IMG/VR virus record: IMGVR_UViG_3300012954_000007
DNA from: a virus
Length of the DNA: 64,000 nt
Reading direction: 5' to 3' (one strand)
Part shown: piece after piece, positions 18,395-63,341 of the stretch
Position numbering within the stretch: position 1 is the first letter of the stretch
How the letters are laid out: each line of letters opens with the position of its first letter
Made by a program: the position numbers and the translations under genes
Notes under the pieces: model-generated
Seen by the model: the letters and a program-made list of their open reading frames with translations, nothing else
The model's database searches: none
Told to the model about the DNA's origin: nothing

Positions 18395-18586
18395 ATGTGT
18401 TTAAAATTTGAAAAAGAAGATTTTTATTTAGACGATAATAATAAAATGGTATTAACAGAAAAGTACCATATAAAAAAAGGTTCTTGTTGTGGTGGCAAAT
18501 GTAAGCATTGTCCTTATTGGCCACCATATCAAAAATCTAATAAAGAATTAAGGGAAGATGTACACACTGGACCTACACGGTTATAA
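18395..18586 (+). CDS. Small Cys-rich protein (DUF5522-like)
   Basis: DFY......VLTEKYH.KKG.CCG..CKHCPY pattern. Confidence 0.7.
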   Translation: MCLKFEKEDFYLDDNNKMVLTEKYHIKKGSCCGGKCKHCPYWPPYQKSNKELREDVHTGPTRL

Positions 18587-29029: not shown

Positions 29030-31744
29030 ATGGCTAGATATGAAGATTTTGGTGGAGGGGGTAATAATCCCTGTGGAGCATACTACCCTAGAAGTGGTCC
29101 TTTAAATATGGCTTCTGAAAGTGCTTGTGTACCTCAAAATTATGGGTCTCAACCAGCTGATGGGGCTAATTTTAATTTTTGGGGACCAGAAGCGGGAACT
29201 ACAAGAGGAAAAGGGTTGTGTTGTGATGTATTTAAAAGAATAGGTCCACAATCTTACGTTTGGGAACCAACTACATATTACCCTATTTTTAGTACAGTTG
29301 CGGGTACTGGTGAAGAATGTCCAGGATGTTTCTACCACGCAAGACGGAACCATACTTCAAGTAACGATAGTAGTGGGGTCGCGTGGAGTGATGACAAACC
29401 TTGTGAACATAAATTGGCATGGTTTGTGAATTCTGTTAATGATTATGTTGAAAAATGGTCAGGTTGTAAAGCATTAATAGATGAAGGAATGCCTGGTAAC
29501 TGTACAATGCACCATTCTTTTGGTTTAATCATGGATACAACAACAAACATATCACATATGGGGTCACCTAACGGGTCATGTCAAAGTAACTGTATGCAAT
29601 TGAATATTAATTACTTTGAACAATATGTCGCGGGTCAATATTTAACTTACGCTCAATACCCACCTAATAATTTTGATGATAAAACAGCTTATGATTGTGA
29701 AACTAAAAAAACAGACTTTCAAGGAAATAATGGTCCCACAGGTTCGAAACTTATTTGGGCGGGATTTGCACCAAATCAATGGAACCCAAGTAATTCATCA
29801 CCTAATAACTCTCCAGGGTTAGGTAACCAGTCTAAAAACTTTGGGCCCACAAACCCAGTCCCTGGTTATACAACAGCTACTGTTATAAACTGGGACCCAA
29901 CACTAGGAAACTCACCTTCAAATCAAACTTATGCTGTAAGACAAAATTTGAATGGTGTAATGTATCAGGGGTACTTACCTGAAAATTCAAATGAAAATAA
30001 CGCGTGGGGATTACTCTCTCCTTCGTTAGGTGGAACCCCATCACAAGAAGACTCCCATCTTTGGGCTCGTAAAAGTGTATGGAGGGTAAGTGATGCGGGA
30101 GAGGACGCTTACCCAACATCTATAGATGATGCATTTGCATGTTGTACTTATGTAAGTTTTGGTTGTACAGACCCGTCTTTTGGAAATTATGACCCTAACG
30201 CTTTTTTAGATTGCGATGGTATACCTAAAACAAATAGGGAATTAGTCACCGTAGACGACAATGGCGTTGAAACAATCACTTGTGATGATATAAATGGAAA
30301 TCCTGGTGTGTGTTGGGATAGTAATGGATTACAATGTTCAGAATGTATAGATAATACGGGAAGTCCTAACGCGGCACTTAACGGGTTACCTAACCCTAAT
30401 TATAATCCTAATTACGGTGAATACTTTAATGCCCCAAATGGTAACTGTACACAACAGATTTTAGATTCTTGTGGTTCAGGTGGGCAGTTAAGTGTCAACG
30501 CTTGGACAGATATGTTTAACATGAGACCTACATCTTCACTATATGGTGGAGGAGCAACATATTTAGGGAATCCAAATAAAGGTGACGGTAGAGCAAAATT
30601 TTGGGATAAAGATGGGGTAGATGTGACTAACCCTAATGTAAGACCTAGATGTCAGTGTAATAATTCTGGATGTTTACTTCCAGGTGCGGACACTTATTCC
30701 TCACTTAACACAACAGATTGTTCTAATCAACCAGCTTCAGTTAGTTTTCTGGGTATGTTAGTGGGTGATGTAACTTGTTGTAGTTACACTAAATACGGTT
30801 GTACTGATGAAACTAAAATTACTCCACCACTAAATAATTATTTTTGTTCTATAGATATTAATGGGGATGGTACACCAGATAACCAGATGTTTTGTATGGA
30901 CCCTACTACAGGAATACCTTGTAATATGGGACCTTGTCCCGCGAATGGTGGGGTACCTTTAGGTCCAGGAAGTGGTACTCCAGGGTTCAATAATCCTACA
31001 GTTAATCTTATAGATGATGGAAGTTGTGATTTAATTTTAATACCTGGTTGTAAAGACGACGGTGGAAATTTAGCGGGTGGTAGTTGGCCTAGTCCAGTCT
31101 ATCCTGGATACGCAGCAATGAATTATGATGCATCCGCTACAGTTCATATACAAAATTTATGTGAGTATGTATTTGGATGTCCCGACCCACTAGCAGATAA
31201 TGCCTTAACACCAGTATGTCCTTCCTCTACTTTAACTGGTAGTATATCTAATTGTGCTACTGTTTACGGAGTAACCAATCAATTTGTAGAAGACAACCTT
31301 ATTCCAAACATAGAATGTTGTGATTATAATATACCTGGAACAGGACCTGGATGTACAGACCCTAACGCATTAAACTTTAATCCATTAGCGGACACAGATG
31401 ACGGAAGTTGTATTTACAACATTGAAGGATGTACAGACCCTAACGCGTTAAATTTTAACCCTGCAGCTACTTTAGATGACTCCTCTTGTTTGTACCCAGG
31501 TGACTATCCGATAGAGGGAGATAACTTCTTAGACGGTAGTCCAATAGAAATATGTAGAGAACCTTTAACAAAAGAAGAGGTATTAATGAATGTTTGTCAA
31601 CCAACAGAAATACAATCAGAAGTATTTATTGAAAGAGGAAAACAATCTGTGTTTGAACCTAACCAAAGATTAGATGAGGTAAGAACAATAGGAGGTTTAA
31701 AAATATACGGTTACGGGTTTTATAACATAAAAGAACAAATATAA
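29030..31744 (+). CDS. Cys/Gly/Asn/Pro-rich repeat protein (putative fibre/adhesin)
   Basis: Multiple GCTDP.A.N[YF]NP.A..DDGSC-type repeats. C-terminal QSEVFIERGKQS...GYGFY block. Confidence 0.65.
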   Translation: MARYEDFGGGGNNPCGAYYPRSGPLNMASESACVPQNYGSQPADGANFNFWGPEAGTTRGKGLCCDVFKRIGPQSYVWEPTTYYPIFSTVAGTGEECPGCFYHARRNHTSSNDSSGVAWSDDKPCEHKLAWFVNSVNDYVEKWSGCKALIDEGMPGNCTMHHSFGLIMDTTTNISHMGSPNGSCQSNCMQLNINYFEQYVAGQYLTYAQYPPNNFDDKTAYDCETKKTDFQGNNGPTGSKLIWAGFAPNQWNPSNSSPNNSPGLGNQSKNFGPTNPVPGYTTATVINWDPTLGNSPSNQTYAVRQNLNGVMYQGYLPENSNENNAWGLLSPSLGGTPSQEDSHLWARKSVWRVSDAGEDAYPTSIDDAFACCTYVSFGCTDPSFGNYDPNAFLDCDGIPKTNRELVTVDDNGVETITCDDINGNPGVCWDSNGLQCSECIDNTGSPNAALNGLPNPNYNPNYGEYFNAPNGNCTQQILDSCGSGGQLSVNAWTDMFNMRPTSSLYGGGATYLGNPNKGDGRAKFWDKDGVDVTNPNVRPRCQCNNSGCLLPGADTYSSLNTTDCSNQPASVSFLGMLVGDVTCCSYTKYGCTDETKITPPLNNYFCSIDINGDGTPDNQMFCMDPTTGIPCNMGPCPANGGVPLGPGSGTPGFNNPTVNLIDDGSCDLILIPGCKDDGGNLAGGSWPSPVYPGYAAMNYDASATVHIQNLCEYVFGCPDPLADNALTPVCPSSTLTGSISNCATVYGVTNQFVEDNLIPNIECCDYNIPGTGPGCTDPNALNFNPLADTDDGSCIYNIEGCTDPNALNFNPAATLDDSSCLYPGDYPIEGDNFLDGSPIEICREPLTKEEVLMNVCQPTEIQSEVFIERGKQSVFEPNQRLDEVRTIGGLKIYGYGFYNIKEQI
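31349..31497 (+). repeat. Coding tandem repeat GCTDPNALNFNP...DD.SC (78-bp period)
   Basis: GGATGTACAGACCCTAACGC at 31349 and 31427. Degenerate copies occur earlier in the ORF. Confidence 0.85.
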
Positions 31745-60954: not shown

Positions 60955-61311
60955 TTAGAAGTCCATATTATCGAATGGTTCCATAAGATTACCACGATTC
61001 TTAAATCCTACACCACCCACATAAGTTTCCATGTTGTTCATTTTTCTTCTTTCGTAGTCTAGAACTGCTAAAGCTAACTTCCTATCATATTCCTTATCAT
61101 CTGTTTCAGGGACTACACCATCATAATAGATGGAACCTCTAAAACTTCTTCCAGGACCACGAAAATCCATTACCTCATCATAATCAGAATCAGACAATTC
61201 AAATTCAACATCATCTACAGGAAGTCTGTTATCCATTTCTTCCTCTTGTTCGTTAATTACTTTGTTTAACGCTTTCTTAATATCTCTTTCTGTAATTCTA
61301 ATTTTACTCAT
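60955..61311 (-). CDS. Acidic hypothetical protein (possible internal head protein)
   Basis: The likely start is ATG 61311 (MSKIRITERDIKKALNKVINEQ), 14 nt after a minus-strand TATTTATA (61326-33). The longer ORF call runs into a terminator. Confidence 0.7.
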   Translation of the reverse strand: MSKIRITERDIKKALNKVINEQEEEMDNRLPVDDVEFELSDSDYDEVMDFRGPGRSFRGSIYYDGVVPETDDKEYDRKLALAVLDYERRKMNNMETYVGGVGFKNRGNLMEPFDNMDF

Positions 61312-61348
61312 GGTATTCTTTTTAATATAAATATAAACAAGGTTAAAT

Positions 61349-61373
61349 AAAAAAAGGGAATCTTTCAATCCCC
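61349..61373 (-). terminator. Intrinsic terminator (minus strand)
   Basis: Minus strand reads GGGGATT-GAAA-GATTCCC-TTTTTTT. Confidence 0.85.
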
Positions 61374-61394
61374 TTTTAATTAATTATTTAGTTT

Positions 61395-61457
61395 TTAACA
61401 ATTGCAACAAGTACATTCACATTTGGTAGTACAGTTACATTTTTCACAATCACACAT
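61395..61457 (-). CDS. Metallothionein-like micro-protein MCDCEKCNCTTKCECTCCNC (20 aa, 9 Cys)
   Basis: Translated by hand from ATG 61457 to TAA 61395. A-rich leader, 15 nt after the upstream stop and ~21 nt before the terminator hairpin. CxC/CC pattern throughout. Confidence 0.75.
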   Translation of the reverse strand: MCDCEKCNCTTKCECTCCNC

Positions 61458-61472
61458 AATATTATTTTTTTT

Positions 61473-63341
61473 TTATTTACCTTTACAACCGAAGTTATTA
61501 GCGAAATTTGCCATTTTAACTACGGAAGCTGAGTATTTAGTTTTATTTTCTACTACTTCTTCAGCCGCTTTACAAACAGACTTACCTTTCATGTTTTTTT
61601 TTACCCACTTCGTAAATTTATCTTTGTTTTTAGGGTCAATCTCTATATCAGAATTTTTTTTTTCGTTAAGAACTCTGTCCACTATTTTGTAAAGGTCACC
61701 CTCACTAAGTTTGATTACGTTTTTATTAGATTTTCTTCTAGGGTTTCTAGATTCAGCTAATTCTTCTCTATCATCTTTTTCTAAATTTCCTATTAGTTTA
61801 AGTAGTTCTGCTTTACTCATATCTTTTACATCACCTCTAAATCCTCTAGAAAGGTCTTTTGAACTGGAAGCATATTTTCCAGTATCTGAACCTCCGAAAG
61901 GATTGTAAGCTTTTGTAGATGTACCAAATTTTAATCCACCTTTACTAAAACCTCTTCTCCCAAAAGAAGGTGCTTCATAAGAACCTCTTTTAGTTGAGGA
62001 TTTTCTACTTTGTACTGATTTTGTTGATGGAGAACTCTTGGGAGCACTTGCACCAAATCCTGTAGGTAATTCACCACCGTAGTTAAATAATACATATGTG
62101 CCCTCAACTCCAGAAGCTTCTAGTGCTTCGAATTTATATGTTGAAATTTCTGGTTTAGGGTCTGTAAATGAATCCTTTAAAGATTTTTCAAATGCTTTAG
62201 CTTCCTTTACTCCTTTAAGTAAAGCTAATTCATATTTTCCAGACTTTACTATTTGGTATTGGATTGATTTACCATCTATGTCAGCTTCTTTAATACTTGA
62301 AGGTTTTAAGTTGTAGTTAGTTTTACCTATTGTAATATTTAAATCTGTACTAAAACCAGTTTCTGAGTCAAATGAATGAGGACCTAGTTCAGGAGAGTCA
62401 GATAAAGTTGTTTCTGCAGTAAATTGTCCTTTTTCTGGTGGGGTTTCTTTTCCACCTTTTTCTTTTTCACCTTTTTCTTTTTCACCGCCTTTTTCTTCTG
62501 ATGGGTCTCCTTCTCCGCCTTTTTCTTTTTCTCCGCCTTTTTCTTTTTCACCGCCTTTTTCTTCACCTCCGCCTTTTTCTTCACCACCGGATTCTTCACC
62601 ACCGGATTCTTCACCTCCGCCTTCTTTTCCGCCTCCTTCTTTTCCGCCGCCTTCGCCGCCTCCTTCACCACCTTCTCCTTTTTCTTGTTCGGTGAGTAGT
62701 TTAACGTCGTTGTAAGACATTCCTTCTTCAAACAGAATCATCTGTTTGATTCGGTCTATTTGTTCTTGAATAGTAGATTCCATAGTATTTTCATTTTCTT
62801 TATAAATATGTTTATATTCTTCTTTTACAGTATAAATATCATTATTACTTGCAGTAGGTGCGGTATAGGTATTTAACTTAGGCCGTTCCTTACCTTTACC
62901 GACTAAATGACCTGAGTCATGTTTGTCGATATCCACATCACCAAATACATCATAATTATCACTATCGGTATTATTATTTTTAGTATGAGGTACCTTATCT
63001 TCAGGATGTGTTACCCCATGAATTTCAACATGGTCATCACCTTTATGTTCATCATCAGGATTTAAATAGTCTGGTTCTGGGTGTAAAGGTCGTTTATTAG
63101 TTTCACTATCATTAAAATTATTACTATCAAACCAAGCAGAACCTTCAAATGAAGGATTATCATTTTTTAATCTTGACGGTCCTTTATCTATTCCTTCTTC
63201 TGGCCATCCAGAGGAAGGGTCCATTTCAGGGGTATTTACAGGATGAATTCTATGTTTTGTAAAATCATTTTTTTTCACACCTTTTTTAATGGTCTTTTTA
63301 GAATCATCTAAAGCTTCGTTAAATCTATACGTAATTTTCAT
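61473..63341 (-). CDS. Low-complexity acidic/Gly-rich protein, probable internal head (cargo) protein; probable second in-frame start at 62783
   Basis: His/Asp-rich N-terminal part, GGE[EK]K repeats, IQEQIDRIKQ and LSEGDLYKIVDRVLNE motifs, basic C-terminal IDPKNKDKFT...KMANFA. Confidence 0.65.
   Translation of the reverse strand: MKITYRFNEALDDSKKTIKKGVKKNDFTKHRIHPVNTPEMDPSSGWPEEGIDKGPSRLKNDNPSFEGSAWFDSNNFNDSETNKRPLHPEPDYLNPDDEHKGDDHVEIHGVTHPEDKVPHTKNNNTDSDNYDVFGDVDIDKHDSGHLVGKGKERPKLNTYTAPTASNNDIYTVKEEYKHIYKENENTMESTIQEQIDRIKQMILFEEGMSYNDVKLLTEQEKGEGGEGGGEGGGKEGGGKEGGGEESGGEESGGEEKGGGEEKGGEKEKGGEKEKGGEGDPSEEKGGEKEKGEKEKGGKETPPEKGQFTAETTLSDSPELGPHSFDSETGFSTDLNITIGKTNYNLKPSSIKEADIDGKSIQYQIVKSGKYELALLKGVKEAKAFEKSLKDSFTDPKPEISTYKFEALEASGVEGTYVLFNYGGELPTGFGASAPKSSPSTKSVQSRKSSTKRGSYEAPSFGRRGFSKGGLKFGTSTKAYNPFGGSDTGKYASSSKDLSRGFRGDVKDMSKAELLKLIGNLEKDDREELAESRNPRRKSNKNVIKLSEGDLYKIVDRVLNEKKNSDIEIDPKNKDKFTKWVKKNMKGKSVCKAAEEVVENKTKYSASVVKMANFANNFGCKGK
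62445..62685 (-). repeat. Coding low-complexity repeat (GGEEK/GGEKEK/GGEES)
   Basis: Imperfect 15/18-bp units, e.g. TTCACCACCGGATTC x2 and repeated CCGCCTTTTTCTTTTTC. Local GC increase. Confidence 0.85.

Follow-up and report, generated by a model that had tools for sequence, protein, structure and literature searches.

A stretch of viral DNA of 64,000 nucleotides (IMG/VR record IMGVR_UViG_3300012954_000007), termed here the window, carries on its minus strand a frame of only 20 codons in which almost half of the residues are cysteine. This raises two questions, namely whether so short a frame is a gene at all and, if it is, what a peptide of this composition might do. A preliminary description of the locus had proposed a phage metallothionein. 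The features of the locus, in the order in which they follow one another on the minus strand, are given below.

61473..63341 (-): upstream ORF of 622 aa, with its stop codon at 61473-61475; no family match
61458..61472 (-): translation-initiation region of 15 nt, A-rich and without a Shine-Dalgarno (SD) word, assigned from sequence context
61395..61457 (-): micro-gene, consisting of ATG, 19 sense codons and TAA, encoding a 20-aa peptide with 9 Cys
61342..61377 (-): intrinsic-terminator-like hairpin and T-run, with 11 pairs and a GAAA loop; the hairpin itself spans 61377-61352
60955..61311 (-): downstream ORF of 118 aa, which starts 83 nt beyond the micro-gene, past the terminator

Re-reading of the sequence bears out the frame at 61457-61395 as it was first described, with its coordinates, length, Cys count, motifs and lack of aromatic residues all correct, and the same is true of its start 15 nt past the 622-aa gene behind an A-rich leader. 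Eight of the Cys codons are TGT and one is TGC. The cysteines, which make up 9/20 residues (45%), are spaced as CxC-xx-CxC-xxx-CxC-x-CC-x-C, and the remaining residues are confined to D, E, K, N and T, so that His is absent along with the aromatics. The gap between the stop of the 622-aa ORF and the ATG of the micro-gene is nearly all A/T and, because just 15 nt lie between them, the two are probably co-transcribed. About 20 nt past the micro-gene stop begins the hairpin, which with its T-run is the GAAA-loop terminator that the preliminary description had placed after the micro-gene. This terminator is predicted to close a two-gene unit of the 622-aa ORF and the micro-gene, with the 118-aa ORF as a separate unit.

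The baseline for chance was provided by the 446 ATG frames of 12–60 codons within the window. The runner-up among these small frames, a 36-codon frame on the strand opposite a long gene, has 7 Cys. When the window was simulated 300 times with a second-order Markov model, the top Cys count per small frame was 3–7, and 8 or 9 was never reached. The nine-Cys frame is not a chance product, and it is very probably a translated gene.

Ribosome profiling and reporters in Flavobacterium johnsoniae have established that A-3, A-6, A-12 and A-13 promote translation initiation, which is SD-less (PMC6847099). The micro-gene of the window has all four of these positive determinants, with A at -3, -5, -6 and -8 to -17, and this run of A extends into the stop codon of the 622-aa ORF. 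The same bias is found in 152 unique viral contexts of the family among the matches listed, in which A occupies -3 in 85%, -6 in 76%, -12 in 87%, -13 in 85% and -14 in 74%, and an SD-like word occurs in 2/152. The leader had also been likened to those of other genes here, rightly so, as the 33 long ORFs of the window are A-rich and SD-poor in the same manner (2/33 SD-like). Moreover, the micro-gene is tightly packed among its neighbours. Among the matches listed, it is co-directional with the upstream neighbour in 143/147 contexts and with the downstream neighbour in 135/146, and a median of 11 nt separates it from the stop upstream and 35 nt from the start that follows. Together, start context and packing predict translation in Bacteroidota-type cells.

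The neighbours themselves fall into at least 41 upstream and at least 42 downstream clusters, which occur in at least 75 combinations. In phages, they include a holin, a PD-(D/E)XK exonuclease, a kinase-like protein and many unknowns. Because these combinations are so varied, the micro-gene is taken to move between phage backgrounds in the manner of a moron.

The family to which the micro-gene belongs was collected from IMG/VR by its cysteine spacing. A first scan, which specified nine TGY codons in the window's spacing, yielded at least 120 matches, which comprised simple repeats together with small frames of the same skeleton that carried other spacer residues. A sharper pattern, in which spacer codons are not T-initial and a stop follows the last Cys, gave at least 120 matches. 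Among the matches listed, the skeleton frame is free of stops in 122/122 loci, and in 120 of these an ATG is found 1–4 codons before the first Cys. The pooled IMG/VR loci comprise at least 193 viral members with at least 129 distinct peptides and at least 144 distinct DNAs. The family skeleton is M-x(0-3)-CxCxxCxCxxxCxCxCCxC-stop, giving peptides of 20–23 residues, and the consensus is MK-C[ND]C-K[VEI]-C[NK]C-G-T-S-C[DE]C-T-CC-[ND]C. Both Cys codons are in use at every Cys position and the spacers are variable, with a conserved Gly and a conserved Ser in the CxC-xxx-CxC core.

Full patterns impose the cysteines that they find, and half-pattern collections were therefore made in which the other half of the skeleton was left unselected. 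In the N-terminal-half collection, family members account for 80/81 distinct DNAs among the matches listed, the remaining one being an unrelated long ORF. Of these 80 members, 73 have the full C-terminal skeleton and an immediate stop, six have the skeleton with 1–2 extra residues, and one has a change from Cys to His; overall, the stop directly follows the last Cys in 74/80 and comes after 1–2 more residues in 6/80. The five unselected C-terminal Cys codons are TGT or TGC in 80/80 members each, except at one position where this holds for 79/80, the exception being His (CAC). The TGC share at these five codons is 15–48%, which means that synonymous change has been frequent and non-synonymous change nearly absent. 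Conversely, the C-terminal-half collection has M-x(0-4)-CxCxxCxC upstream in 121/132 distinct DNAs among the matches listed, the remaining 11 being Cys-rich or stop-containing sequences unrelated to the family. This pattern of conservation indicates purifying selection on the nine Cys and fits a protein, not a DNA or RNA motif.

A few loci depart from the skeleton. In L342 (upstream of 6923), the middle spacer has two residues instead of three, and in L263 one Cys is replaced by His. L354 has an apparent 8-codon remnant (M-CxCxCxC), and one host locus (L233:4526) has ATA where ATG is expected.

The window has 32% G+C and codes for very large proteins (2139, 2816 and 1271 aa), in addition to amidase-domain, tail-fibre-like and SbcC-like proteins. 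IMG/VR has a single close relative of it, the contig L001, which is 194 kb long and rated 61% complete, and because of this size at this completeness, the window phage is probably a jumbo phage. The best explanation of its source is a large AT-rich phage with marine Bacteroidota as hosts. The micro-gene is retained in L001, where about 165 nt from just before the ATG onward are identical to the window except for two substitutions. These fall in adjacent micro-gene codons and amount to a swap of E-K to K-E, and the terminator is identical to that of the window. Loss or breakage of the frame in relatives, a point on which the preliminary proposal could have failed, was looked for, and the frame is kept in L001 and the Cys are preserved in the family.

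Just upstream of the micro-gene there is a recombination break (window 61476-61650 (-) versus L001:6130-6310). Over its last ~60 residues, the upstream protein of the window bears no relation to that of L001, the 3′ end of the gene having been replaced outright, and the upstream protein of L001 has a C-terminal segment with four Cys and one His that is common to L298 and L157. Boxes of the octamer TATTTATA (window 61326-61333 and 62801-62838 (-)) were considered as promoters and rejected, as the octamer is not enriched (17 occurrences versus 16.7 expected from shuffles).

For cultured phages, a 2.5-kb segment spanning the locus had no blastn match in INPHARED (50,697 GenBank phage records). 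A tblastn search with a family member likewise gave no match, the low-complexity filter probably masking the query, and short blastn searches gave chance matches only, the best of which was an unrelated 66-aa ORF of Maribacter phage Molly. These blastn and tblastn searches, which are weak for so short a query, found no cultured phage that carries the micro-gene.

A scan of 185,579 prokaryote species, represented by one genome each, returned 28 matches, all of them in marine Bacteroidota. The carriers are Cryomorphaceae MED-G11, Flavobacteriaceae, ‘Marisimplicoccus’, Marinoscillum and other Cytophagales. About 20 of the 28 cellular copies occupy one conserved chromosomal neighbourhood, which in one case lies on a 1.1-Mb contig. 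Its order is a purM-like gene, GlnII glutamine synthetase, a Ca/Na antiporter, a tRNA, often a 119-aa unknown, the micro-gene, a lipoprotein, pirin, DUF6174 and the methionine sulfoxide reductase MsrA. The remaining host copies are also found amid cellular genes, including those for gluconolactonase, glyoxalase, DUF5916, hydrolases and a PhoD-like protein. Judging from this gene context, the family is a cellular gene of the presumed hosts, marine Flavobacteriales and Cytophagales, that is also carried by phages. What the preliminary description had missed is that the gene is not confined to this phage, the same mobile family being present on host chromosomes of both orders.

The chromosomal micro-gene is directly followed by ~290 non-coding nt (L230:4040-4330 (+), with the equivalent stretch in ~20 host loci). 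Within this stretch are two boxes, a conserved AAAGTTATTAACAAT and a Bacteroidetes -7-like one, together with internal hairpins and a strong terminator, and it has no Rfam match. It may encode a small RNA.

Within the viral family, the window belongs to a subfamily of 11 contexts (the window, L001, L298, L052, L090, L129, L137, L152, L157, L167 and L177) that is marked by a Lys preceding the fifth Cys (‘TKC’). All 11 have a terminator behind the micro-gene, and in 7/11 the next gene is convergent. The upstream proteins of all 11 contexts contain MKKIxIKESELxxLIEKLVKEN or a copy of this motif. In the 622-aa protein, a ‘IKLSEGDLYKIVDRVL’-type motif is located near the C-terminus, and the 118-aa ORF has it at its N-terminus as well. 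The 622-aa protein has no Pfam or PHROG match, and the earlier suggestions that it is a putative head protein and that expression is late find no support.

The short form of this helical motif is I-x-[IL]-[ST]-E-x-[DE]-L-x2-[LI][IV]-x-[KR]-[VL]-[VL]-x-E. Its sites in the window are 61302 (-) in the 118-aa ORF and 61715 (-) in the 622-aa ORF, and it is also N-terminal in proteins that precede the micro-gene in nine other contigs, among them L298, L052, L090, L129, L137, L157, L167 and L177. The motif may be a targeting or processing signal.

With a gene and a family in hand, the remaining question is that of function. The reading favored here, with a probability of roughly 60%, is that the micro-protein has a metal-thiolate, metallothionein-like function. 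Metallothioneins are recognized by small size (below ~10 kDa), high Cys content in close motifs, and scarcity of aromatic residues and His. The window peptide has 20 residues and 2 kDa (20–23 residues in the family), and its cysteines are arranged as CxC, CxxC and CC. Aromatic residues are absent from the window peptide and from the pattern-free columns 5, 9, 10 and 11 of 85 distinct cores, which are limited to G, T, S, K, V, N, D and E-type residues. His occurs twice among the family members listed, once in place of Cys. This is the sole natural Cys replacement among the matches listed, and it requires two base changes and introduces another metal ligand.

Five members searched against Pfam at E values up to 10 matched no metallothionein model significantly, the one match being to PF01439 (plant metallothionein) at E 0.54 and 11.6 bits versus a cut-off of 23. 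A PDB profile search returned only 2KAK (wheat Ec-1) at a non-significant E of 5.2, and no PDB sequence matched significantly. No metal transporter, sensor or chaperone was found among the phage or host neighbours examined. The putative metallothionein of the preliminary description thus has every sequence-level feature of the class but no significant match to a curated Pfam metallothionein model.

To our knowledge, no nine-Cys domain is as short as 20 residues. A three-metal cluster in such a chain may need two chains or may favor Cu(I). In the proposed mechanism, the peptide would remain in the reducing cytoplasm because it has no signal sequence, and its nine thiolates would fold around a soft metal, either as a Zn(II)/Cd(II) cluster of the M3Cys9 type or with several Cu(I). 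Such a minimal metallothionein would buffer or store trace metal and incidentally scavenge oxidants, and the phage copy would be a host-derived auxiliary gene that keeps this function running during infection. The preliminary description had also considered a role in supplying the many Cys-rich proteins of the phage, for which there is little basis, as the ORFs of the window have just 1.4% Cys overall. The claim of many such proteins is only weakly true: one ORF of 904 aa (window 29030-31744 (+)) has 47 Cys (5.2%), far over the mean of the window.

Several known systems offer points of comparison. The nine-Cys, beta-type metallothionein domains of vertebrates and crustaceans, and the Zn3Cys9 part of wheat Ec-1 (2KAK), likewise have nine Cys in four close pairs plus one, and a CxC-xxx-CxC core with Gly, Ser, Thr and Lys between the pairs; they too lack aromatics and are cytoplasmic. 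However, these domains have ~30 residues, while the micro-protein has 20–23, is free-standing, occurs in Bacteroidota and their phages, and shows no significant sequence relationship to the domains (E 5.2). A nine-thiol ligand count corresponds to the ‘Zn3Cys9 cluster common in MT’ (PMC10612145). The same source links the SmtA/BmtA-type metallothioneins of marine cyanobacteria to zinc homeostasis. Like the SmtA/BmtA proteins of cyanobacteria and Pseudomonas, the micro-protein is prokaryotic, cytoplasmic and Cys-rich, and zinc buffering is a feature of that group (PMC10612145). In contrast, SmtA-type proteins have ~55 residues, use His as well as Cys as ligands, contain aromatic and hydrophobic residues and adopt a zinc-finger-like fold, and the micro-protein has no Pfam match there.

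In terms of size, the closest comparison is with fungi. The Cu(I)-thioneins of the Neurospora crassa type have ~25 residues and 7 Cys, and their specificity for Cu(I) has been demonstrated. They are similarly tiny, single-cluster and CxC-rich, and they show that a chain of such size can hold a metal-thiolate cluster. The micro-protein differs from them in having nine Cys rather than seven, in its spacing and in its non-eukaryotic origin.

The commonest downstream neighbour of the micro-gene is a FAD protein of ~430 aa, which is found in 44/152 contexts among the matches listed. For this protein (L143:856-2163 (+) and homologues), the Pfam match is the Rossmann motif only. The structure nearest to its AlphaFold model (pLDDT 80) is PDB 3NLC, the functionally uncharacterized flavoprotein VP0956 from Vibrio parahaemolyticus; the model also resembles GR2-type flavoenzymes, and a redox-active Cys pair is absent. 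The FAD protein was considered and rejected as a required partner of the micro-protein, given that it is usually found without the micro-gene and is found neither in the window nor in the 194-kb relative.

Before the FAD gene in marine viral contigs lies a conserved RNA-like element (L130:2613-2727 (+); other examples are L009:14104-14219, L097:3609-3722 and L343:1025-1074, with more than 160 further loci). When the element was collected by its own motif (at least 120 contigs), the FAD gene was downstream in 161/161 matches with enough room among the matches listed. By contrast, the canonical micro-gene was upstream in 0/105 newly sampled element loci, one of which has a spacing variant. Because of these two distributions, the element is assigned to the FAD gene and is predicted to work without the micro-gene.

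The element has a hairpin of 5 bp, in which four pairs covary and none is broken in 43 sequences, and which has an invariant 9-nt loop, ATTCATAGC. After this hairpin come an A-rich linker, a terminator hairpin that starts with an invariant CTGTGGC, and then a conserved CGTATATTA. The CAUAG of the loop can pair with CUGUG of the 5′ arm of the terminator. In the one variant, L323, the loop has changed in concert with both the 5′ and the 3′ arm, and because of this joint change the element suggests a terminator/antiterminator switch. The element has no Rfam match, and Rfam identified no family in or around the micro-gene locus.

The composition that points to a metallothionein would also suit a thiol/redox role or a zinc-stabilized binder. 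A cytoplasmic, thiol-rich peptide without a defined metal cluster could serve as a sacrificial buffer against oxidants and electrophiles or as a small cysteine or sulfur store. Nine free thiols in 20 residues would be well suited to this, and host copies are located near pirin and MsrA, with a glyoxalase in a second neighbourhood. However, these neighbourhood links are loose, such a buffer would not need an exact nine-Cys spacing across more than 140 distinct DNAs or a conserved Gly and Ser, and the variant in which His replaces Cys fits a ligand role better. This possibility is regarded as unlikely. In another view, metal would be structural rather than cargo, and the peptide would be a zinc-stabilized micro-protein that modulates a specific host or phage protein during takeover or anti-defence. 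Many phage micro-proteins bind and modulate specific proteins, and the movement of the micro-gene among many unrelated phage neighbourhoods, like a moron, would be expected of such a binder. Yet the conserved chromosomal copy points to housekeeping in the cell, the residues between the Cys are variable and offer little recognition surface, and no neighbour is conserved family-wide, so that a binder appears quite unlikely.

The outline of the window, with a Cys-rich short ORF followed by a terminator and a gene, also resembles a cysteine-sensing leader peptide, in which ribosome stalling at the nine Cys codons would control the terminator and the downstream gene. Mycobacterial polycysteine leader ORFs act as cysteine-responsive attenuators, and they too are very short and dense in Cys codons, as the micro-gene is, with a terminator sometimes behind it. 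In addition, the micro-gene lies 9–16 nt before the conserved hairpin-terminator element in the 44/152 contexts mentioned above. Against such attenuation, a downstream terminator is found in just 46/152 contexts among the matches listed, the next ORF elsewhere being 4–20 nt on, and where the next gene is convergent, as in most of the subfamily, there is nothing to regulate. The fold of the window contains no alternative antiterminator pairing that would compete with the terminator, the downstream genes are unrelated to one another, and the hairpin-terminator element is tied to the FAD gene independently of the micro-gene. Unlike the mycobacterial leaders, the micro-gene forms a family with fixed Cys spacing and several non-Cys residues, mostly without a terminator, and its host copies stand alone; for a leader, both the fixed spacing and the conserved Gly and Ser would be superfluous. 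The attenuator was rejected as very improbable. A precursor of a RiPP (a thioether- or thiazole-type natural product) is suggested by the short, Cys- and Thr/Ser-rich peptide with its C-terminal Cys, but is extremely improbable. A leader region is absent, with 0–3 residues before the first Cys, and no context examined has a radical-SAM, cyclodehydratase, lanthionine-synthetase or HFCD-type neighbour; the frequent flavoprotein neighbour resembles VP0956 and GR2-type flavoenzymes rather than an enzyme that modifies peptides, and is mostly found without the micro-gene, and host copies stand alone amid housekeeping genes. Finally, the frame is very short and is not called by gene finders, and none of the ten members looked up has an exact match among the 15 billion predicted proteins of one collection, as would be the case for a chance frame or an untranslated TGT-rich DNA motif. 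The probability of this is negligible, given that the frame exceeds every simulation, uses both Cys codons, has conserved start and stop positions and lies in a specific start context.

If the peptide binds metal, as the metallothionein-like reading would have it, metallothioneins would gain a new family of extremely small size, one that within the literature searched would be without precedent in Bacteroidota or in phages. It would also show that ocean viruses tamper with trace-metal handling, beyond the metabolism of carbon, nitrogen, phosphorus and sulfur. Full-text searches for phage or Bacteroidota metallothioneins returned nothing relevant, and the statement that no phage metallothionein of such a type has been characterized stands, in that no paper describing one was found. 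A bolder form of this reading is that the micro-protein is the smallest gene-encoded metal-thiolate cluster protein, with nine ligands in 20 residues, and that as a host-derived phage gene it controls the Zn/Cu/Cd economy of the infected cell, which would make it a new viral auxiliary class, one that every gene caller overlooks. This is put forward tentatively and appears doubtful at present. If it were true, such host takeover could carry weight in trace-metal cycling while algal blooms turn over.

Whatever its function, the micro-gene is widespread and strongly selected (at least 190 viral contigs), and standard annotation misses it completely because it has fewer than 30 codons. Elsewhere in the window, an ORF of 63 codons (18395-18586 (+)), flanked by two long ORFs in whose gap it lies, bears a CCGGKCKHCPYWP motif. 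It is likely a further small Cys-containing gene of the kind that a length threshold can miss.
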